From contig JAHITE010000007.1 of the NCBI GenBank assembly GCA_018817585.1, positions 25,251 through 89,250 on the forward strand: a stretch of DNA of 64,000 nucleotides, read 5' to 3'. Numbering within the stretch: position 1 is the stretch's first letter; every line of letters begins with the position of its first letter. The DNA is from Candidatus Omnitrophota bacterium. GTDB lineage: Bacteria > Omnitrophota > Gorgyraeia > B26-G9. The notes beneath the pieces were generated by a model. It worked only from the letters and a program-made list of their open reading frames with translations. It was not told the DNA's origin and did no database searches. Below, piece after piece: positions 2,482 to 61,616 of this stretch. The translations under genes and the position numbers were made by a program.

Positions 2482-3035
2482 AAAAACTATTAAATACTTC
2501 ACTTGATGAGATTGATTTCGCGGTTGTTGATTTAGAAACAACTGGTTTTTGTTCGCAGCGGGATTGTGTTATTGAAGTTGCTGCTGTAAAAATAAAAAGC
2601 GGTAATATAAAGGAGCATTATCAATCTTTGATCTATGCGGAATACATTCCTTATCAGGCAACCCGGGTTCATGGTATAGATTTACAGATGGTGGCAGATG
2701 CTCCATCTTTAAATACAGTGAGAAATGATTTTCGGGAATTTATTCAGGGATGTGTTTTGGTTGGGCATAATATTAAGTCATTTGATATGCCTTTTTTGTG
2801 CAATGCTTTTAATATTGAAGAAAATGCTTTTTGTGTTGATACTCTAAAACTATCTAGATTGTTGTTTGCCAAAGAGCGTACGCATAAATTATCAGTAGTA
2901 GCGCAAAGACTGGGTATAAAAAACGATAGATATCATCGGGCATTAGATGATACCTTGGTAACTGCAAATGTTTTTCTCGAGTTTTTAAAAATAGGCAACA
3001 GGCAGTTTAAAGTTTTAAAAGATATTATTGCCTGA
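2478..3035 (+). CDS. DnaQ-like 3'-5' exonuclease (DEDDh family)
   Basis: Exo I motif FAVVDLETTG, Exo II VGHNIKSFDMPFL, Exo III YHRALDD. 185 aa, overlapping the thiE stop. Confidence 0.7.
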   Translation: MKKLLNTSLDEIDFAVVDLETTGFCSQRDCVIEVAAVKIKSGNIKEHYQSLIYAEYIPYQATRVHGIDLQMVADAPSLNTVRNDFREFIQGCVLVGHNIKSFDMPFLCNAFNIEENAFCVDTLKLSRLLFAKERTHKLSVVAQRLGIKNDRYHRALDDTLVTANVFLEFLKIGNRQFKVLKDIIA

Positions 3036-3077
3036 TTAATAATAAAACATTATAATAAACTTTCAGGAGGAGAAAAT

Positions 3078-3500
3078 ATGAAAAAAGGATCAATAATAGT
3101 ATTTTTTATGGTTTTAATCAGTGGATTTTGCGGTTTTACGGTTCAGGGTAATGCTCAGCAAATAGATAAAGAAATAGCAAATAATCAGGTTGAGCAGGTA
3201 AAGTTAGAATTGGAAATTGTGAATAATGAAATATTAGATTTTGATTCAGCGAATGAAAATGAATACTTAGAATCGCAAGCCCAAGCGCAAAAAGATGCTG
3301 CGCTTGCTCAGCAGCAGTTAGATGTTGAAATAGAATCATTGCTGGAGCAGGTAAATCAAGATTCTGAACAACTTGGAGAAACTTTTTCAAAAGAAGCGCA
3401 AGAGAATACGCGGCAAATTAAGCAGGAAACTGTACAGCAGGTTGAAGAAATAGAAGTTCAGGCCCAAAAGGTAGAATCAGATAAATTAGATCAAGAGTAA
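3078..3500 (+). CDS. secreted Q/E-rich coiled-coil protein (hypothetical)
   Basis: Signal-peptide-like N-terminus, highly acidic Gln/Glu-rich low-complexity body, and a strong RBS (AGGAGGAG). Confidence 0.4.
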   Translation: MKKGSIIVFFMVLISGFCGFTVQGNAQQIDKEIANNQVEQVKLELEIVNNEILDFDSANENEYLESQAQAQKDAALAQQQLDVEIESLLEQVNQDSEQLGETFSKEAQENTRQIKQETVQQVEEIEVQAQKVESDKLDQE

Positions 3501-5135: not shown

Positions 5136-8100
5136 ATGCCGAAAAGAACAGATATAAAAAAAATATTAATTATTGGTTCTGGTCCGATTATTATTGGACA
5201 AGCTTGTGAATTTGATTATTCCGGAACTCAGGCTTGCAAGGCATTGCGTGAGGAAGGGTTTGAAGTTGTTTTGATTAATTCCAATCCAGCTACAATAATG
5301 ACTGATCCGGAAATAGCAAATGCTACTTATATCGAGCCGATTACTCCGGAAGTATTGGAGAAAATCATTGCCAAGGAGCGTCCCGACGCGCTTTTACCTA
5401 CTTTAGGGGGGCAGACTGCGCTTAATACAGCAATGAAAGCTGCTGAAATGGGTATTTTAGAAAAGTATAATGTGCGGATGATCGGAGCTAATACAACGGT
5501 TATCCGAAAAGCAGAAGATAGAAAATATTTTAAAGAAGCAATGCTGAAAATTGGGCTTGATTTACCAAGAAGTGCTTTGGCTTATAACATGCCGGAAGCA
5601 ATGGAGGCTTTAAAACAAATCGGGTTGCCGCTGATTATCCGTCCCAGTTTTACCATGGGGGGGACTGGCGGAGGGATCGCGCAAACTGAGGAGGAATTTG
5701 AAAAAATTTGTCAGTTAGGTTTGCGCAATAGTATGATTAATGAGATCTTGGTTGAAGAGTCAATCTACGGCTGGAAAGAATACGAGCTGGAGGTAATGCG
5801 TGATTCTAAGGACAATGTGGTTATTATTTGTTCAATTGAAAATTTTGATCCAATGGGTATTCATACAGGAGATTCTATAACCGTAGCGCCCGCGCAGACT
5901 TTGACTGATCAGGAATATCAAAAAATGCGCGATGCGGCTTTGGCGATTATCCGGGAAATCGGAGTTGAAACCGGTGGATCGAATATTCAGTTTGCGGTGA
6001 ATCCTAAAGATGGCAGAATGATTGTTGTTGAAATGAATCCGCGTGTTTCCCGCAGTTCTGCTTTAGCCAGTAAAGCTACGGGCTTTCCGATTGCCAAGTT
6101 CGCGGCGAAGTTAGCAGTAGGGTTTACGCTGGATGAAATTCAGAATGATATAACCAAAGAAACTCCGGCTTCCTTTGAACCGACAGTTGACTATTGTGTT
6201 GTGAAAATTCCCCGGTTCACTTTTGAAAAATTTCCCGAAGCGCAGGATATTCTCGGGATATCTATGAAGTCAGTCGGTGAAACAATGGCCATTGGCAGAA
6301 CGTTTAAAGAAGCTTTGCAAAAAGGTTTAAGAGGCTTGGAAATTGGACATATTGGATTTGATAATAAAAATGATTTTCGAGAGATTGAACAGGAAAAGCT
6401 ATTGCACCGACTTAAAGAACCTAATGCTTCGCGGATCTTTTATATAAAATATGCTTTTCAGAAGGGGATGAGTTCTGAAGAGATTTGTAAATTAACTGAT
6501 ATTGATCCGTGGTTTATTGATAATTTAAAGCAGATTGTTGAATTAGAAGAAGAGATAAAAAATCAGGGGAAAGATATTTTTCATATTGACGCAGGATTGC
6601 TGCGCAAGGCAAAGGAATATGGATTTGGCGATGAGCAGCTGGCAAAACTTTTAAATACAGATGAAGTGACTGTACGCAATCAAAGGAAAAAACTCGGGAT
6701 TATAGTAACCTATAAATTAGTTGATACTTGCGGTGCGGAATTTGAAGCCTATACGCCTTATTATTATTCAACTTATGAGCAGGAAGATGAAACCCGTATT
6801 TCAAATAAGAAAAAAATTATGATCTTAGGCGGCGGTCCTAATCGAATCGGGCAGGGAATAGAATTTGATTATTGTTGCTGTCATGCCTCCTTTGCTTTAA
6901 AAGAGCTGGGATTTGAAACAATAATGGTTAATTCAAATCCAGAGACTGTTTCTACTGATTATGATACTTCGGACAAACTTTATTTTGAGCCATTGACATT
7001 TGAAGATGTAATGAATATTGTTGACAGAGAAAAACCAGATGGAATTATTGTCCAATTTGGTGGGCAAACTCCATTAAATTTGGCAAGAAAACTTAAGAAT
7101 GCCGGAGCCCCGATAATTGGAACTTCTGTAGAGTCAATTGATCGCGCTGAAGATAGGGACAAATTTTCGCAATTAATTAAAGAATTGGGGATTAATCAGC
7201 CGCCGAATGGATCAGCTACATCAAGAGATCAGGCAATCGCCATTGCCAAGGAAATTGGATATCCGATATTGGTTCGACCTTCATATGTTTTAGGTGGTAG
7301 AGCGATGAGGATTGTTTATAATGAAAAAGATTTAACAAAATTCATGATTGAAGAAGCTGAAGCAATTGATATCTCAAGTGAAAAACCGATTTTGATTGAT
7401 AAGTTTTTAGAAGACGCGGTTGAAGTTGATGTTGATGCTTTATCTGATGGGCATACTACGATTATTGGCGGGATCATGGAACATATCGAAGAAGCCGGAG
7501 TGCATTCTGGAGATTCTGCATGTGTGCTGCCTCCGCATACTTTAAGTGACAAGATTCTGGATATTATTAGACATAATACTAAGCTATTATCAAAAAAATT
7601 AGAAGTAAAAGGACTTTTAAATATACAATTCGCGATAAAAAATAGCATTGTTTATGTGCTTGAAGTTAATCCTCGGGCATCACGCACTGCTCCTTTTGTA
7701 AGCAAGGCAACAGGAATTCCTCTAGCAAAAATTGCCGCAAAAATAATGGCAGGCAAAACACTAGATCAGTTAGGAATAAAGGATGAGAAAAAAATAAAAC
7801 ATGTTGCGGTAAAAGAATCAGTATTGCCTTTTTCTCGATTCTCCGGAGTAGATATAATCCTTGGGCCGGAGATGAAATCAACAGGCGAAGTAATGGGCAT
7901 AGACAAAACTTTTGGGATTGCTTTTTATAAGTCACAATTGGCCGCTGGGTCAGTGCTTCCGACAAAAGGCAAGATATTTATTAGTGTTAAAGCCAATGAT
8001 AAAAAATCTATAGTAGCTGTTGGGAAGAAACTGGTTAATTTAGGTTTTGAGATTATTGCGACAAAAGGAACGTATAATGTTTTAAACTCAAACAATATTC

Positions 8101-12211: not shown

Positions 12212-12454
12212 TTAAAAACTGAAAATATTTAAAAAAACGATAAAGAAAGTTCTGGTGAAAAAATTTTTAAAAAGTTTTTTCATTTTTTTTCATTTTTTTC
12301 TTGAAATTAGTATTTATAATGTTGTATATTATAAATTGTAGATACAATATATAGTACAAACATATATTGTGCTTAAAGTGAAGGACATACCAAGATATTG
12401 TGTAGGGGCAAACTTTTAGTGTAAAATATTACTGAAAGAAAGGGGGTGAATATT

Positions 12455-12577
12455 TTGGTAGTCAAAAAGAAAGTAGCAAAGAAGGTAGTAGCTAAGAAAG
12501 TGGTAAAGAAAGTAGCTAAGAAAGTAGTAAAGAAAGCAGTAGCTAAGAAAGTAGTAGCTAAGAAAAAGAAAAAATAA
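12455..12577 (+). CDS. candidate 40-aa lysine/valine-repeat peptide, M(L)VVKKKVAKKVVAKKVVKKVAKKVVKKAVAKKVVAKKKKK; histone-H1-tail-like or cationic amphipathic
   Basis: TTG start 7 nt after a strong RBS (AAAGGGGGTGA) and TAA stop at 12575-12577. Missing from the ORF track because it is short. The DNA is a tandem AAGAAAGTAGTAGCT-type repeat. Confidence 0.3.
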   Translation: MVVKKKVAKKVVAKKVVKKVAKKVVKKAVAKKVVAKKKKK

Positions 12578-14156: not shown

Positions 14157-14201
14157 TTGACTTTTTATTTGTTTTAGTGTATCTTGAAAGTGTATCTTGA
14201 A
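14157..14201 (+). promoter_or_regulatory. promoter TTGACT-17-TATCTT whose -10 lies in the first of two perfect tandem 12-mers GTGTATCTTGAA (14177-14188, 14190-14201); operator-like
   Basis: Direct read. The repeats span the -10 and the predicted transcription start about 25-45 nt upstream of the 14226 start. Confidence 0.4.
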
Positions 14202-25389: not shown

Positions 25390-25439
25390 AATAAATTTTT
25401 TAAGCTTGTTGTAAACTTGTTGTAACTATTTCTATTTTC

Positions 25440-27736: not shown

Positions 27737-27773
27737 AGTCTTCTCTGTAGTCTTCTCTGTAGTCTTCTCTTGT
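27737..27773. repeat. 3x tandem 12-mer AGTCTTCTCTGT in a C/T-rich, G-poor tract just after the NMO stop
   Basis: Direct read. Copy 3 has one extra T. Confidence 0.8.
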
Positions 27774-41285: not shown

Positions 41286-41897
41286 TTGAGGGGTCAGATG
41301 ATGAGGAAAAATAAAAAATCCAAAGAAAATGAAAATATTTATGATTTTTTTGCTGAATCCGGACTGCTTAAAAGAGTAAAGCGAAGCGGCTGGTGGGTGG
41401 TTGGAATAAAAGATCCGGAAAGCGTTGCTGATCATTGCTATCGCTGCGCTGTAATCGGCTACGTGCTGGCTAAAATGGAACAAGCTGACGCGCATAGCGT
41501 TACAATGATGTGCTTGTTCAATGATTTACACGAAGCAAGAATAAATGACGCGCATAAAGTAGCTTCAACTTATTTGAATTATCGGGAAGCGGAAAATAAA
41601 GCTTTTTTTTATCAAATTGAAAATTTGCCAAAATCAATCAGCAGTGAAATGGCTGATTGGCGCAAACAATACATTAAACAGGAAAATTTGGAGAGTATTA
41701 TTGCTCGGGACGCGGATATCTTTGAATGCTTGATGCAGGCAAAAGAATATTCAGATCAAGGTAATACCCAAGCAAAACTGTTTTTCAAAAAAGCCCCGAG
41801 TTTTTTAAAAACAAAAAGCGCGAAAAAACTTTGGAAAGATTTAAGAAAATGGGACAGCAGTCATTGGTGGCAGAAGATTACAGAATTTGAAAGATAA
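41286..41897 (+). CDS. HD-domain hydrolase (YfbR-like 5'-deoxynucleotidase family)
   Basis: LKRVKRSGW, H...HCYRCAVIGYVLA, NDLHEARINDA and DADIFECLMQA motifs. Confidence 0.6.
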   Translation: MRGQMMRKNKKSKENENIYDFFAESGLLKRVKRSGWWVVGIKDPESVADHCYRCAVIGYVLAKMEQADAHSVTMMCLFNDLHEARINDAHKVASTYLNYREAENKAFFYQIENLPKSISSEMADWRKQYIKQENLESIIARDADIFECLMQAKEYSDQGNTQAKLFFKKAPSFLKTKSAKKLWKDLRKWDSSHWWQKITEFER

Positions 41898-42074
41898 CTT
41901 AGCTAATAACTTATGGCTCATAGCTAATAGCTCATGGAAAAAGCAGAGAACAGAAAACAGAAAAAAGCAGCGAATCGGGATTAGGACTTAGGAATTAGGA
42001 ATTGCAATTGTCCTGTGACCTTGTGACCGAAAGTTTTTAACTATTGACCATTAGCTATTGACTATCAACTATTA
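41898..42074. repeat. composite intergenic repeat element, copy A (GCTCATAG/AGCTCATGG direct repeats ... CTGTGACCTTGTGACC ... CTATTGAC x2)
   Basis: Shares the 14-mer CTGTGACCTTGTGA and the TAGCTCATGG / GCTCATAGC motifs, in the same order, with copy B at 60760-61004. Confidence 0.5.
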
Positions 42075-42560
42075 ATGAAAGGGTTTATTATGGGTGACAT
42101 ATTTTTGACCAGAGAAGGTTATGAAGAAATTAAAAAAGAGCATGAGTTATTAGTTCAAAAGAAAAGACATGAAATTTCCCGGGCAATCGGTGTGGCGCGG
42201 GAGTTGGGAGATTTAAAAGAAAATGCTGAATATCATTCAGCTAAGGACGCGCAGGGGTTGAACGAAGCTCGGATCAGAGATCTTGAAAATACTCTTAGCC
42301 GGGCAAGAATCCTTGATAATGAGAATATCGACAAAGATAAAGTTTTACTCGGGGCAAAGGTTAAAATCAGGGTAGTTAATGATAATGAAATAGAAGAATA
42401 TACCCTTGTATCAGAAGCCGAAGCGGATTTTAGCAAAAATAAGATTTCCGCTGCCTCCCCATTAGGTCAAGGCATGCTCGGGCATAAAGTGGGCGAAACA
42501 TTACAAATAAAAATCCCCGCAGGATTTATGGTGATCGAGATTTTGGAAATAAGCCGCTAA
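42075..42560 (+). CDS. greA: transcription elongation factor GreA
   Basis: LTREGYEEIKKEHE...LKENAEYHSAKD N-terminal coiled coil plus a C-terminal FKBP-like domain. Confidence 0.9.
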   Translation: MKGFIMGDIFLTREGYEEIKKEHELLVQKKRHEISRAIGVARELGDLKENAEYHSAKDAQGLNEARIRDLENTLSRARILDNENIDKDKVLLGAKVKIRVVNDNEIEEYTLVSEAEADFSKNKISAASPLGQGMLGHKVGETLQIKIPAGFMVIEILEISR

Positions 42561-50902: not shown

Positions 50903-51012
50903 ATGCCCAAATCGTCCTTGCGTCAATGTTTTCGCGTTAGCGCGTGCGCGAGTTAGAAACAAAATACCTTTCAACGCGTGAACCCGTGAACTTTTTCCTG
51001 CTTTTTCCCCAT

Positions 51013-51099: not shown

Positions 51100-53925
51100 A
51101 TGGACAAACAATCAATTATTATTAAAGGGGCAAAAGAGCATAATTTAAAGTCTCTGGATTTGGAATTGCCGCGGAATAAACTTATTGTAATCACTGGTTT
51201 ATCCGGATCCGGTAAGTCTTCCTTGGCTTTTGACACAATCTATGCCGAGGGCCAGCGGAGATATGTGGAAAGTCTTTCGGCTTATGCCCGCCAATTTCTC
51301 GAGCAATTGCATAAGCCGGATGTGGAATATATCGAAGGCCTTTCTCCGGCAATTGCCATTGAACAAAGAGTTGCTGGAGCTAATCCGCGTTCCACAGTTG
51401 CCACGCAAACCGAAATCTATGACTATTTAAGATTATTATTTGCCCGGATCGGCATTGCATACTGCTATCGCTGTAATCGGAAAATAACCCAGCAGTCTGT
51501 GCAGCAGATTGTCAGCCAGATTATGCAATTACCGGAAAATTCCAAACTCTATGTTTTAGCACCTTTGGTGCGAGGCCGAAAAGGGGAATATCGGAAAATT
51601 TTTGAGGAAGTATCTAAATCTGGTTTTGTCAGGGTGCGGGTGGATAATCAGATCTATGATATAAATGAACCAATTAATCTGGATAAGAAAAAAAACCATT
51701 CCATTGAAGTTGTGGTTGATCGCTTGATCTTAAAGCCGGATATTAAAAAGCGTCTGACTGATTCCGTGGAAACAGCTTTAAAAGTCGGCAAAAGCACAAT
51801 GCTTTTGGCAATTGAAGGCAAAGACGCGAACTTAGAGGAAATGATCTTTAGTGAAGTCTATGCCTGCACGCATTGCGGAATAAATTATGAAGAATTTCAG
51901 CCGAGAATGTTTTCCTTTAACAGTCCTTATGGCGCCTGCGCTGCCTGCGGTGGTTTGGGAACAAAAGTAGAAATAGATGAAGACCTGGTGGTTCCGGAAC
52001 GAACCCGCACTCTCAGAGAAGGCGCGCTTGAGCCTTGGCGCAGAGGCGGCAAGGGCTATATCATGTATTATCGCAGCTTGCTCTATGAATGCGCGGCAAA
52101 AGTTGGTTTTAGTCTGGATGTTTCCTTTAATAAATTAACTAAAAGTGTGCAAAAATTAATCTTATACGGAGATCAAAACATAAATATCTGGGGCAAGCCT
52201 TTTGAAGGAATTATTCCTAATCTCGAAAGATTATTTAAAACCACGGACAGTGAATTCAGAAAAGAAGAAATAAATAAATACATGAGCAATCTGCCGTGTC
52301 CCAGCTGTCAGGGGGCAAGACTTAAGCCGGAAAGTTTAGCGGTTAAGGTAGGAGGATTATCAATCTATGCTATTACCCGGCTGTCAATTGTTAATGCCGC
52401 GAAATTTTTTAAAGATTTAGAACTCAATGATAAAGAAAAACAGATTGCCAATCAGATTTTAAAAGAAATCAGACAGCGGATTGATTTTATGGAAAATGTA
52501 GGACTTAGCTATCTCAGTCTTGACCGCCAGAGCAGTACTTTATCCGGAGGCGAGGCACAGCGGATCCGTTTGGCCACACAGATCGGATCACGGCTGCGGG
52601 GAGTGATCTATGTTTTAGATGAGCCGAGTATTGGTCTGCATCAGCGGGATAATGATAAACTGCTCGATACATTAAAAGTATTAAGAGATATTGGCAATAC
52701 TTTGATTGTCGTTGAACATGATGAGGCCACAATCAAACAAGCCGATTATATTGTTGACCTGGGACCTGGCGCCGGCAAGCAGGGCGGATATATTGTTGCC
52801 CAGGGAACATTAGCCGATATTCTTAAATCCAAAGATTCGCTTACTGCCCAGTATATAAACGGAGACTTTAAAATCCTTCCTGACTATCTGCGGAGTAAAA
52901 AACCAGCGGATAAAAAACCCAAAGCCAAAACAATTGAAATAATCGGCGCGCGGGAGCATAATCTTAAAAATATTAATGTAAGCATTCCTTTGGGAAATTT
53001 TGTTTGTATCACCGGAGTTTCCGGCTCAGGCAAATCAACATTGATCGATGATATTCTTTATCGCGGCCTGGCTAAGAAATTGTATTTTTCCAAAGAAAAG
53101 CCGGGTTTGCATAAAACAATTAAAGGCATTGAAAATATTGATAAAGTAATTGTCATTGATCAATCGCCGATCGGCCGAACTCCTCGTTCCAATCCGGCAA
53201 CCTATACTAATTTATTTTCTCCGATCCGCGATTTTTTCAGCCAAATGCCGGAAGCCAAGATCAGAGGTTATAAGCCGGGAAGATTCAGCTTTAATGTTAA
53301 AGGCGGCCGCTGTGAATCCTGTCAGGGCGATGGAATTAAAAAAATAGAAATGCATTTTCTCTCGGATGTTTATGTGCAGTGCGAAGTCTGTAAAGGCAAG
53401 CGGTATAATGAGCAGACTTTGGAAGTTAAGTACAAAGGCAAGACAATCTCCGATGTGCTGGAGATGACAGTTGCTGATGCCCTGCTGTTTTTCACTGCTA
53501 ATTCCCGGGTTACCTCAAAGCTCCAGGTTTTAAATGATGTGGGTTTGGGTTATATTCAGCTGGGCCAGGCCGCGACCACGCTTTCCGGAGGCGAGGCGCA
53601 AAGAGTAAAACTTTCCACTGAGCTTGCTAAAAAAGCCACTGGGAGAACTTTGTATATTCTCGATGAGCCGACCACTGGCCTGCATTTCGCCGACATTGAT
53701 AAACTGTTAAAAGTTTTGCACACTTTGGTGGATTATGGTAACACAGTGTTAGTGATTGAACATAATCTTGACGTGATCAGAACCGCGGACCATATTATTG
53801 ATTTAGGGCCTGAAGGCGGGGACAATGGGGGGCAGATAATTGCCCTGGGCACGCCGCGGCAAGTAATGAACAGTAAAAAATCGTATACCGGTAAATATTT
53901 AAAACAACATTTAACGCAGCATTAG
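51100..53925 (+). CDS. uvrA: excinuclease ABC subunit A
   Basis: Two ABC ATPase modules ([24 protein letters not shown]), zinc-finger cysteines, LSGGEAQR signatures. 941 aa. Confidence 0.95.
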
Positions 53926-60429: not shown

Positions 60430-60759
60430 ATGAGCAAAGAAAACAAGGAATGTATTGTTGTTTTTGTTACTGCCGGCTCAGATCAGGAAGCTGATCTGCT
60501 CAGAGAAAAGTTGCTTGCAGCTAAACTGGCAGCATGTGTAAGCAAAACCAATGTTAATTCCATGTTTTTCTGGGAAAATAAAATCCAGACAGAAAATGAA
60601 GTGCTGCTGATCATCAAAACAAAATATAGTTTATATTCAGAGCTTGAGGCTTTGGTCAGACAGCTGCACAGCTATGATCTGCCGGAGATTATCGCCTTAC
60701 CGATTATCAGCGGTAGTAAACCGTATCTTGAATGGATAAACGAAAACACGAAAAAGTAA
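60430..60759 (+). CDS. cutA: divalent-cation tolerance protein CutA
   Basis: CutA1 fold motifs (IVVFVTAGSDQEA...LAAC...IKTK...PEIIALPI). 109 aa. Confidence 0.75.
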   Translation: MSKENKECIVVFVTAGSDQEADLLREKLLAAKLAACVSKTNVNSMFFWENKIQTENEVLLIIKTKYSLYSELEALVRQLHSYDLPEIIALPIISGSKPYLEWINENTKK

Positions 60760-61004
60760 AAAGCACTTTTAGCTCATAGTTGATAGCTCATGGCTCATAG
60801 CAAAAGCAAAAAAACAAAATAAAGTAAAAAGGCTGGGATTAATTATCCCGGTCTTTTTTTTGTAGGGGCGCTGCTTGCCTGCGCCTGTATCATAATTATT
60901 CCACCGATTATTACGGGCCGAGGCAAGCGCGGCCCCTACGCTGTGACCTTGTGATTTTTAAACATTTTTTCTAAAAATGTTTAACTTGTGATATAATAAA
61001 TAAA
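60760..61004. repeat. composite intergenic repeat element, copy B; contains an intrinsic terminator (60833-60861), a GC-rich imperfect 24-nt-arm palindrome (60862-60940), CTGTGACCTTGTGA, and a perfect 12-bp hairpin TTAAACATTTTT/AAAAATGTTTAA
   Basis: Motif order and sequences match copy A (41898-42074). The palindrome is roughly 70% GC in an AT-rich genome. Confidence 0.5.
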
Positions 61005-61616
61005 ATGAAAAAAGGATTTACTCTCTTAGAGCTGCTTATCGGTATAACCATCTTCGCGATTATTTCCGGAGCGGTTTATACCAGTCTTTATCTGGGGGTA
61101 AAGGTTTGGAAGCATGAAGAAAAAAATAATTCCAGCCTTCAGGAGATTATCCTGACCTTTGAACTGATCGAAACAAATCTGTTCAGTACGTTTATCAACC
61201 CGGAAAATGAGAATATAAAATTCAAAGGCAGCGCGGACCGCCTGGAATTTTTCCGGGTGAATAATGCCGAGCAATTAGAATCAGTTTGTTTTTATTTGGA
61301 TTCCGCGGCAGAAAAAGATTCAGCTGAATTATTGGTTTTAAGGAAAAGATATTCTTTGCCTGATCAGCAGCAGCCGGAAGTCAGCCCGGAGATTGTGAAT
61401 AATCAGATCAAAAATTTTAAATTAAGCTATTTTAATAATAAAGAAAATAAATGGAATGAGGATTGGCCTGAGGAATTATTACTGCCCAGTCAGGTAAAAG
61501 TTGAGATTGATTTTAAGCTAAATGATTCCGCGGACAGTGCTTTGCACTTCGAAAAATACATCAGCATTCCCGCGGCAAATAAAATAGAATTAGCAACTGA
61601 TGATATCGCGGCTTAA
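61005..61616 (+). CDS. GspJ-like minor pseudopilin (prepilin-type N-terminal signal)
   Basis: KGFTLLELLIGITIFAIISGAV class-III signal peptide. 203 aa. Confidence 0.6.
   Translation: MKKGFTLLELLIGITIFAIISGAVYTSLYLGVKVWKHEEKNNSSLQEIILTFELIETNLFSTFINPENENIKFKGSADRLEFFRVNNAEQLESVCFYLDSAAEKDSAELLVLRKRYSLPDQQQPEVSPEIVNNQIKNFKLSYFNNKENKWNEDWPEELLLPSQVKVEIDFKLNDSADSALHFEKYISIPAANKIELATDDIAA

Follow-up and report, generated by a model that had tools for sequence, protein, structure and literature searches.

Chained 7- to 8-nt micro-arrays and a putative GTAG-tagged palindrome doublet in two gene spacers of an Omnitrophota genome

Several bacteria have an excess of heptameric tandem repeats in their intergenic DNA, where the repeats are found close to stop codons and differ in length from one close relative to another (PMC4692102), and such repeats sometimes make genome-wide word families (PMC4679880, PMC2700814). 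Described examples are the TAACTGA repeats (PMC4679880), the GGGAATC and GGGGAYT repeats (PMC4692102), the heptanucleotide elements of Geobacter metallireducens (PMC2700814) and, as cited in PMC4679880 and PMC4692102, the long simple sequence repeats (SSRs) of Mrazek 2007. Repetitive extragenic palindromes (REPs) of the GTAG type, and their dimers, are recognized by a GTAG tag and stem-loop traits (PMC3733652), and REP doublets are called REPINs (PMC3116915). Some REP families are regularly embedded in recurrent short sequences, some of these with many unoccupied copies, and REPs are carried by relatives of Omnitrophota in the Planctomycetes-Verrucomicrobia-Chlamydiae group (PMC3733652). Here we describe two gene spacers in a 64-kb stretch of a Candidatus Omnitrophota genome (the window; G+C content, 36.6%). 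Spacer A lies between an HD-domain phosphohydrolase gene (stop codon TAA, 41895 to 41897) and the co-directional greA gene, and spacer B lies between cutA (stop codon, 60757 to 60759) and a type II secretion J-like pseudopilin gene (ATG at 61005). An earlier note on this DNA described the two spacers as two copies of one composite repeat, and every motif that it listed was found in place. We consider that the spacers probably hold slippage-driven, dispersed and probably selfish mosaics of 7- to 8-nucleotide (nt) words, accompanied in spacer B by a REPIN with its habitual array flank.

Tandem arrays were called with Tandem Repeats Finder (TRF). Nearly all of the length of copy A (41898 to 42074) consists of five chained micro-arrays with units of 7 to 8 nt:

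41900 to 41937, plus strand: module 1, imperfect heptamers TAGCTAA TAACTTA TGGCTCA TAGCTAA TAGCTCA TGG (TRF period 7, 4.7 copies, TAGCTMA-type).
41938 to 41972, plus strand: module 2, A-rich units AAAAAGC AGAGAAC AGAAAAC AGAAAAA AGCAGCG (TRF period 7, 3.6 copies, AAAACAG-type).
41977 to 42004, plus strand: module 3, units GGGATTA GGACTTA GGAATTA GGAATTG (TRF period 7, 3.4 copies, GGRMTTA-type).
42013 to 42028, plus strand: module 4, octamers CTGTGACC TTGTGACC, containing the 14-mer common to spacer B and without a REPIN.
42037 to 42074, plus strand: module 5, units TTAACTA TTGACCA TTAGCTA TTGACTA TCAACTA TTAA (TRF period 14/7), the 3′ arm of the element.

Module 1 starts 2 nt past the stop codon of the HD-domain gene. 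The units of module 5 are the reverse complement of module-1-type words; 42048 to 42069 on the minus strand fits the module 1 pattern with three mismatches. The sequence CTATTGAC, noted earlier as occurring twice in copy A, was located in this arm at 42041 and 42055. Module 5 directly precedes the ribosome-binding site (RBS) gaaaggg (42077 to 42083) and the probable greA start at 42090. The mechanically called greA open reading frame (ORF) begins at 42075, and the gene call in relative L123 begins at ATGGGTGAC, which is position 42090 here. Comparison with that call makes ATGGGTGAC the most likely start, and spacer A therefore probably extends to 42089. An exact-protein look-up of GreA from 42075 gave no match, the start used being probably wrong, and the same look-up of the pseudopilin gave none.

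Self-identity at each lag was compared with 2,000 shuffles. At lag 7 it reached 0.57 in copy A and 0.56 in 60760 to 60830, against 0.27 to 0.32 in the shuffles (none of the 2,000 as high), and these two regions are the top two lag-7 sites of the window. Each TRF array has only 2 to 5 imperfect units (73 to 88% matches); the arrays are individually short but significant as a block. No signal was found in copy A at lags 10 and 11 (0.26 and 0.25). The repeats had been described as helical-turn spaced and as an iteron-like array; the real spacing is 7 and 14 nt and the neighbors of both spacers are housekeeping genes, and both descriptions were dropped.

Spacer B has a different composition. In order, it contains module 1, a degenerate module 2, the cutA terminator, the GC palindrome, the 14-mer, an AT hairpin and an extended −10 box:

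60770 to 60801, plus strand: module 1′, TAGCTCA TAGTTGA TAGCTCA TGGCTCA TAGC (TRF period 14/7), beginning 10 nt past the cutA stop codon.
60802 to 60830, plus strand: module 2′, degenerate A-rich units AAAAGCA AAAAAAC AAAATAA AGTAAAA A, alignable to module 2 of copy A.
60831 to 60861, plus strand: cutA intrinsic terminator, GGCTGGGAT-taatt-ATCCCGGTC and then T8 (RNA fold, −18.5 kcal/mol; z, −6.2).
60862 to 60939, unstranded: REPIN-like doublet, two REP units, GTAG-tagged at their outer ends, on either side of a 30-nt AT-rich spacer.
60862 to 60885, plus strand: REP arm 1, GTAGGGGCGCTGCTTGCCTGCGCC, stem GGCGC/GCGCC.
60916 to 60939, minus strand: REP arm 2, GTAGGGGCCGCGCTTGCCTCGGCC, stem GGCCG/CGGCC.
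60941 to 60954, plus strand: module 4′, CTGTGACC TTGTGA, adjoining the ...GGCCCCTAC end of the REPIN.
60958 to 60969 and 60973 to 60984, unstranded: perfect 12-bp AT palindrome, TTAAACATTTTT tct AAAAATGTTTAA (fold, −7.3 kcal/mol; z, −4.0).
60989 to 60997, plus strand: extended −10 box of the pseudopilin gene, TGaTATAAT, with the hexamer at 60992 to 60997, 7 nt before the ATG at 61005 (read from the sequence).

The resemblance between the two spacers is confined to modules 1, 2 and 4. The word GCTCATRG was found at 41916 and 41930 and at 60772, 60786 and 60793. The exact 14-mer CTGTGACCTTGTGA occurs in the 64 kb only at 42013 and 60941; with up to two mismatches allowed, shuffles averaged 0.15 matches, and none of 100 reached two. 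Across GCTCATAG-YTR-ATAGCTCATGG, 20 of 22 positions are equal between 41916 to 41937 and 60772 to 60793. Local alignment of A and B gave 74% identity over 62 nt (E, 6e-9), with a score of 30 against 12.1 ± 1.9 for shuffles (z of about 9.6). The proposal of two copies of one composite thus stood in part: modules 1 and 2 and the 14-mer are shared in the same order, and B is not a full second copy of A. On the sequence comparisons, B is a partial member with modules 1 and 2; its REPIN stands downstream of the ancestral cutA terminator and upstream of the pilin promoter. GGGATTA, common to A and B, was considered as a further family link and set aside as probably coincidental, because the copy in B belongs to the stem of the ancestral terminator.

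The UvrA encoded at 51100 to 53925 of the window equals (100% identity) a protein on a 96-kb contig of a Candidatus Omnitrophica metagenome-assembled genome (MAG). Contigs of relatives were chosen by identity to this UvrA: 95% for L121 and L122, 91% for L123, 82% for L124 and 79% for L125. L085 and L123 belong to one assembly (GCA_043805415.1), with L085 on a different contig and at a different locus. L084 belongs to another Omnitrophota MAG, and L210 is a low-GC contig of 14.5 kb from a metagenome shared with L121. The reading covered 64 kb of this genome and, from relatives, about 200 kb; about 1 Mb of DNA was fetched overall.

Homologous composites were found at other loci. The element in L085 has the module order of A, lies between co-directional genes at a non-orthologous locus, and ends its inverted array just before an RBS, as in A; it aligned with A at 63.5% over 181 nt by blastn (E, 1e-13), with 75% column identity over the full length by MAFFT, and with B at 76% over 74 nt. 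The 15-nt GCTCATAGCTAATAG of module 1 of A is exact in L085 too. L084 carries both arms with a 16-nt spacer, ahead of ggag...ATG. Spacer A of L123 matched L149, which is not orthologous to the HD-greA spacer, at 74% over 166 nt and 79% over 123 nt; L149 matched the region upstream of uvrA in L122 at 73% over 197 nt, reversed; and spacer A of L123 matched that same region at 95% over 58 nt. These three loci are linked via modules 2 and 3. Module 2 follows module 1 in A, B, spacer A of L123 and L085 alike, and orientation relative to transcription is equal in A, B, L085 and apparently L084. Unrelated loci share identical irregular unit successions, for example, TAATTAC TAATTTC TAAACTC TAA. Since the same irregular order of variant units stands at non-orthologous spacers, the composites appear to have been copied rather than independently re-invented, and homologous composites at non-orthologous loci (L085, L149 and L122 upstream of uvrA) indicate that the lineage-specific family is real. 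The small family proposed earlier therefore exists; it is not specific to this genome, as the AGCTCAT type occurs in many phyla (below).

A reversed fragment of module 2 was also present just upstream of the uvrA promoter region:

50995 to 51008 of the window, minus strand: reversed module 2 fragment, GGAAAAAGCAGGAA.
9887 to 9908 of L122, minus strand: its counterpart, GGAAAAAGCAGAGACAGAA.

In L122, this fragment is part of a bigger reversed composite. Separately, a dispersed element of about 250 to 300 nt was seen in spacer A of L123 (about 345 to 615), in L149 (about 3025 to 3390) and in part in L210 (3120 to 3240) and is absent from the window. It holds a hairpin, GCGGCTGAGACTGCA-cgat-GCAGRCTCAGGC, and its end sequences GGCAAAAA...TTTTTGCC are predicted by sequence to be able to form a closing stem. 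It gave no Rfam match and could be a noncoding RNA or another mobile element.

Orthologous spacers showed rapid turnover of the arrays. In spacer A, TGTGACC units number 2 in the window and 4 in L123, GGAATTA units number 3.4 and 2, respectively, and L123 has an insertion of about 300 nt in the middle; in L125, another heptamer array, GGGTGWA, occupies this spacer. In spacer B, module 1′ is kept in L123, which has a CTTGTGT array instead of the 14-mer and a short GTAGGGCCACG...CGTGGCCCTA hairpin instead of the long palindrome. L122 has a TAATTAC-type array and (AGTCACA)2 in place of the TAGCTCA array. No arrays were found in spacer B of L124 and L125 (UvrA identity, 82% and 79%), where only the terminator and promoter are present. 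By this comparison, the arrays behave as slippage-prone simple repeats of apparently recent origin.

The conserved parts of spacer B are the terminator and the TGTGRTATAAT box. The intrinsic terminator reported earlier in B was confirmed by its fold, and an equivalent of the hairpin and T-run was found in L122, L123, L124 and L125; it is evidently the ancestral terminator of cutA, outside the repeat family. TGTGRTATAAT is kept in L122 and L123, and L124 has TGTTATAAT. The extended −10 box explains the third CTTGTGA copy and lies outside the repeat family. The position of the box 7 nt before the ATG, with no Shine-Dalgarno sequence, is kept in L122, L123 and L124 and suggests that the pseudopilin mRNA may be leaderless. 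The perfect AT hairpin, likewise reported earlier and recovered here, is not in the orthologous spacers of L122 and L123. It separates the REPIN-flank array from the pilin promoter and could represent an operator or have been inserted recently.

The GC palindrome of spacer B had been called REP-like, and this description was borne out. As DNA, 60862 to 60939 folds with −26.1 kcal/mol (z, −5.9). GTAGGGG opens both arms (at 60862 on the plus strand and at 60939 on the minus strand), followed by the hairpin, and arms 1 and 2 differ at five positions, of which four are compensatory within each arm's own stem. The pattern GTAGGGGCNNNGCTTGCCTNNGCC matched in more than 120 metagenome contigs with G+C contents from 32 to 76%. 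Arm statistics were taken from 153 arms in 120 contigs, among the matches listed. Both variable stem pairs are Watson-Crick in 142 of the 153 arms, with three pair types: positions 9/21 are G-C in 118, A-T in 14 and C-G in 12, and positions 10/20 are G-C in 123 and C-G in 22. Doublets with GTAG outside and spacers of 20 to 46 nt are the commonest arrangement (15 among exact-arm pairs). A unit of about 78 to 94 nt also occurs in L122, L149 and L210; the 10 arms in the 14.5 kb of L210 represent about seven REPINs of one 94-nt unit, all intergenic between housekeeping genes, and the 64-kb window has a single doublet. On these sequence features, the GC palindrome can be assigned as a GTAG-tagged REP doublet, a REPIN.

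The REP motif reads GTAGGGGC-NNN-GCTTGCCT-NN-GCC, in which foot and loop are kept and the stems covary; its commonest form is GTAGGGGCGGAGCTTGCCTCCGCC (76 arms, among the matches listed, L126 to L245). The loop GCTTGCC resembles Pseudomonas REPs. To our knowledge, Omnitrophota had not previously been described as REP bearing. A second REP type, GTAGGGCCACGGCGTGACGTGGCC, was seen in L123 (19783 to 19810), L210 (13329 to 13352) and L242 (1074 to 1097) and co-occurs with the first type in this lineage; at the cutA-pilin site of L123, it stands in place of the long doublet. No REP-associated tyrosine transposase (RAYT; Y1 transposase, PF01797) was found among the 10 ORFs of L210, a stretch too short to expect one, or among the six ORFs bracketed by REP arms in metagenome loci, whose translations were judged by eye. 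A Pfam scan of the window covered 18 genes.

The TGTGACC word proved to be tied to the REPIN end. Of the roughly 10 REPINs in this lineage, 8 have a (Y)TGTGNCC-type array that begins one base past the ...GCGCGGCCCCTAC end, usually with TTTTAA next. The junction in B is identical in kind: position 60939 is followed by G and then by CTGTGACCTTGTGA TTTTTAAAC. The length of the array differs at one orthologous site, with two units in L149 against six in L210. Across the roughly 1 Mb fetched, TGTGAC-type tandems were confined to this Omnitrophota lineage. From these junctions, the 14-mer in B is better explained as the usual flanking array of the REPIN than as a piece of a transposed copy of A. In A, the module 4 array reads CTGTGACCTTGTGACC gaaag TTTTTAAC, with no REPIN there. 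The TGTGACC array may be the REPIN's preferred target or else a tail carried along with it. Whether REPs in general go together with short tandem arrays was also considered; array density was 0.37 per kb close to REP arms, against 0.20 per kb in the remaining DNA, a comparison that includes coding DNA and is not convincing. The REP-array link holds only in the Omnitrophota lineage.

The TAGCTCA-type word extends much farther. The degenerate pattern GCTCATRGNNNATAGCTCATRG matched in more than 120 genome stretches, with hosts in Desulfobacterota, Nitrospirota, Omnitrophota, Myxococcota, Chloroflexota, Bacteroidota, Planctomycetota, Acidobacteriota and Gemmatimonadota. Statistics were taken over 120 loci (L001 to L120), among the matches listed. 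The matches are short imperfect arrays, outside long ORFs in 112 of the 120, usually about 30 nt or less from a stop codon and in all gene orientations; strand relative to genes showed no bias, with 34 “++” and 27 “−−” contexts. An inverted partner array lies within 300 nt at 35 loci. Period 7 is dominant (393 of 951 TRF rows). AGCTGAT is the alternate middle unit in 37 loci, and other substitutions are fewer (TTC, 14; CTT, 4; CCC, 4); the excess hints at a 14-nt alternating unit.

Two explanations for these words were tried and rejected. In viral contigs, a permuted-heptamer control did not bear out AGCTCAT as a special cross-phylum word: (AGCTCAT)3 occurred in 5 contigs and the permuted heptamers in 1, 6, 6 and 15. 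All these counts are far above the chance estimated for a 21-mer, and heptamer arrays of any word are therefore common. Stop codons in all frames do not account for the words either: 65% of other period-7 units have a stop on either strand, against 57% of shuffles, a weak excess expected for noncoding DNA, and there was no excess of stops on both strands.

A hairpin of about 95 nt made of an AGCTCAT array and an inverted array was seen in three contigs of one Aminicenantes MAG, CS4-C025 (L018, about 1900 to 1990; L111, about 3230 to 3340; L115, about 6520 to 6615). With the frame judged by eye, it lies inside an apparent gene for an adenylate-forming enzyme, immediately ahead of the LYKTGDL motif. 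An in-frame ATG comes from the last ATGAGCT unit; the gene could be split, or the hairpin could have inserted within it.

A full element, as in copy A, reaches from one gene's stop codon to the RBS of the next co-directional gene, with a fixed order of TAGCTCA-type words, A-rich AAAACAG-type words, GGAATTA- or TAATTAC-type words, TGTGACC, and an inverted TAGYTNA array mirroring the first. From one close relative to another, units are gained or lost in the arrays and words are exchanged, as replication slippage predicts. The REPIN may be mobile via a RAYT or an IS200-like single-strand hairpin mechanism. The array mosaics would be largely selfish or neutral, acting at most as a spacer or as a weak long-range hairpin in polycistronic RNA. 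Several points weigh against this account. The window has just one REPIN and one full composite in its 64 kb, and the sequence read from relatives amounts to about 200 kb; no RAYT gene was found, in little sequence. A target-site duplication or sharp ends are not definable for the array mosaics, whose mode of spread we infer. The recurrent AGCTGAT middle unit is unexplained by simple slippage, and the constant orientation, together with a 3′ arm directly ahead of the RBS, would suit a modest RNA-level role as well. We found no evidence that the elements control greA or the pseudopilin operon, and a literature search on the exact sequences returned no relevant paper.

The main alternatives to a selfish mosaic assign the arrays a function. 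If they were binding sites of a lineage-specific DNA- or RNA-binding regulator, with composite spacers co-regulating the downstream genes, then the same words in fixed order in several unrelated spacers, the 3′ arm 5 to 25 nt ahead of the RBS in A, L085 and L084, and the biased use of AGCTGAT would be expected, and a reading of this kind has been offered for other heptamer families, the Geobacter “global regulator sites” and the Beggiatoa TAACTGA repeats (PMC2700814, PMC4679880). We consider this unlikely, because the downstream genes are unrelated (greA, the pseudopilin gene, a PIG-L-like gene and uvrA), words and copy numbers shift already at 91 to 95% UvrA identity, the spacer B arrays are missing at 79 to 82%, the cross-phylum arrays lack strand bias, and no candidate binding protein was identified.

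An RNA element in polycistronic transcripts, with a long-range stem of modules 1 and 5 serving as a processing site, mRNA stabilizer or translational insulator, was judged to be just as unlikely. Consistent with such an element, spacer A has no terminator, orientation follows transcription, the minimum-energy fold pairs 41921 to 41938 with 42046 to 42063, inverted partners recur at the 35 cross-phylum loci given above, and REPs are reported to act as RNA hairpins (PMC3733652). Against it, fold energies are no better than those of shuffles, with z of 0.03 for A and −0.67 for L084, neither significant for arrays; the arms are poorly conserved and the internal modules freely swapped. Searches of the whole window and 17 related loci at the Rfam gathering score gave tRNAs only, and a permissive search of spacer B gave sub-threshold matches only. 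No promoter or terminator bracketing A was found. The suggestion of a small RNA family was abandoned on the same grounds: the lack of an Rfam match, of a dedicated promoter and terminator, and of a significant fold of the array arms.

A classical miniature inverted-repeat transposable element (MITE), with A and B as two insertions bearing terminal inverted repeats and target-site duplications and moved by a DDE transposase, is very unlikely. The size (about 180 to 250 nt), noncoding content, inverted terminal arrays and copies at non-orthologous loci would suit a MITE. At the homology boundaries of A and L085, where the earlier suggestion of a MITE called for a duplicated flank, none was visible (left flanks, GATAA and AAGCG; right flanks, CAACT and TGGGG); the would-be terminal repeats are degenerate heptamer arrays without defined termini, B lacks the 3′ half, and module content differs between copies. 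Finally, chance resemblance of two AT-rich low-complexity spacers is scarcely credible, as the earlier note had also held: by simple match/mismatch scoring, the A-B pair ranks only fifth of 342 comparisons and other AT-rich spacer pairs score as high, but the exact 14-mer and the 20/22 match are of mixed composition and in the same order, the alignment stands far above shuffles, and relatives carry homologous composites.

A broader idea, which we put forward as a long shot, is that array-built hairpin elements (a heptamer array, a spacer and an inverted array) are a distinct and widespread class of non-autonomous mobile DNA across phyla, of the AGCTCAT/AGCTGAT type. Omnitrophota would have extra arrays chained between the arms, a conserved single-strand DNA enzyme or binding protein would recognize the elements, and TGTGACC-like arrays would act as REPIN landing pads. 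If true, such a class would link simple-sequence repeats and REP-type transposition mechanistically.

Other repeats in the window were noted in passing. Direct repeats of 8 to 13 nt in two to three copies lie at 27737 to 27770, 25401 to 25425, 14176 to 14201 and 50973 to 50991; in several spacers, they adjoin upstream or overlap promoter-like TGnTAtaaT boxes, for example, AGTCTTCTCTGT in 2.8 copies before TTGTAA-17-TGcTATACT. A tandem 12/15-nt repeat at 12446 to 12575 appears by eye to encode a small lysine-rich ORF, roughly LVVKKKVAKKVVAKKVVKKVAKKVV...KKKKK, which is not in the list of ORFs of at least 80 amino acids and recalls small histone-like or ribosome-associated basic proteins.

If the mosaic reading is right, gene spacers in at least one uncultured phylum can be copied mosaics of heptamer micro-arrays, not unique sequence, and the REP-type element of this lineage accompanies a specific slippage-prone array. 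Were that array the REPIN's target or tail, it would offer a handle on REPIN site choice, with simple repeats and hairpin transposition feeding each other. The elements may also explain assembly and annotation oddities in Omnitrophota MAGs, such as variable spacer lengths and spurious starts (for example, greA at 42075), and could be usable as fast-evolving strain markers.

Compared with known systems, the composites are like MITEs in being small, noncoding and dispersed with inverted ends and unlike them in lacking a target-site duplication, in having ends made of degenerate tandem units, and in their modular, variable internal content. The doublet resembles GTAG REPs, REPINs and bacterial interspersed mosaic elements (BIMEs) (PMC3733652, PMC3116915, PMC2817692, PMC8266576) in its 24-nt units, which have GTAG at the 5′ end and a short-looped, GC-rich stem that varies by compensatory changes. 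As in REPINs, doublets have GTAG outside and 20- to 46-nt spacers, are extragenic and downstream of coding regions, and have many copies in relatives; as in BIMEs, the REP is joined with other short motifs in mosaic spacers; and its array flank recalls the recurrent “target” sequences in which some REP families lie (PMC3733652). Unlike known REPs, its host is an Omnitrophota genome of 36.6% G+C with no RAYT located and one doublet in 64 kb, and its flanking partner is a slippage-prone octamer array and not a fixed palindrome. The arrays themselves are closest to the heptanucleotide SSR families: tandem 7-nt units that are intergenic, usually within tens of nucleotides of a stop codon, sometimes in inverted pairs, varying in length and sequence between relatives at a kept position, and with words favored by the lineage. 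A related case is reportedly that of the cyanobacterial STRR repeats (Mazel, 1990, cited in PMC4692102). Unlike those SSR families, the arrays described here are very short (two to five units) and imperfect, several words are chained in fixed order into a 180- to 250-nt composite that is itself copied to other spacers, and the TGTGACC word is tied to the end of a REPIN.

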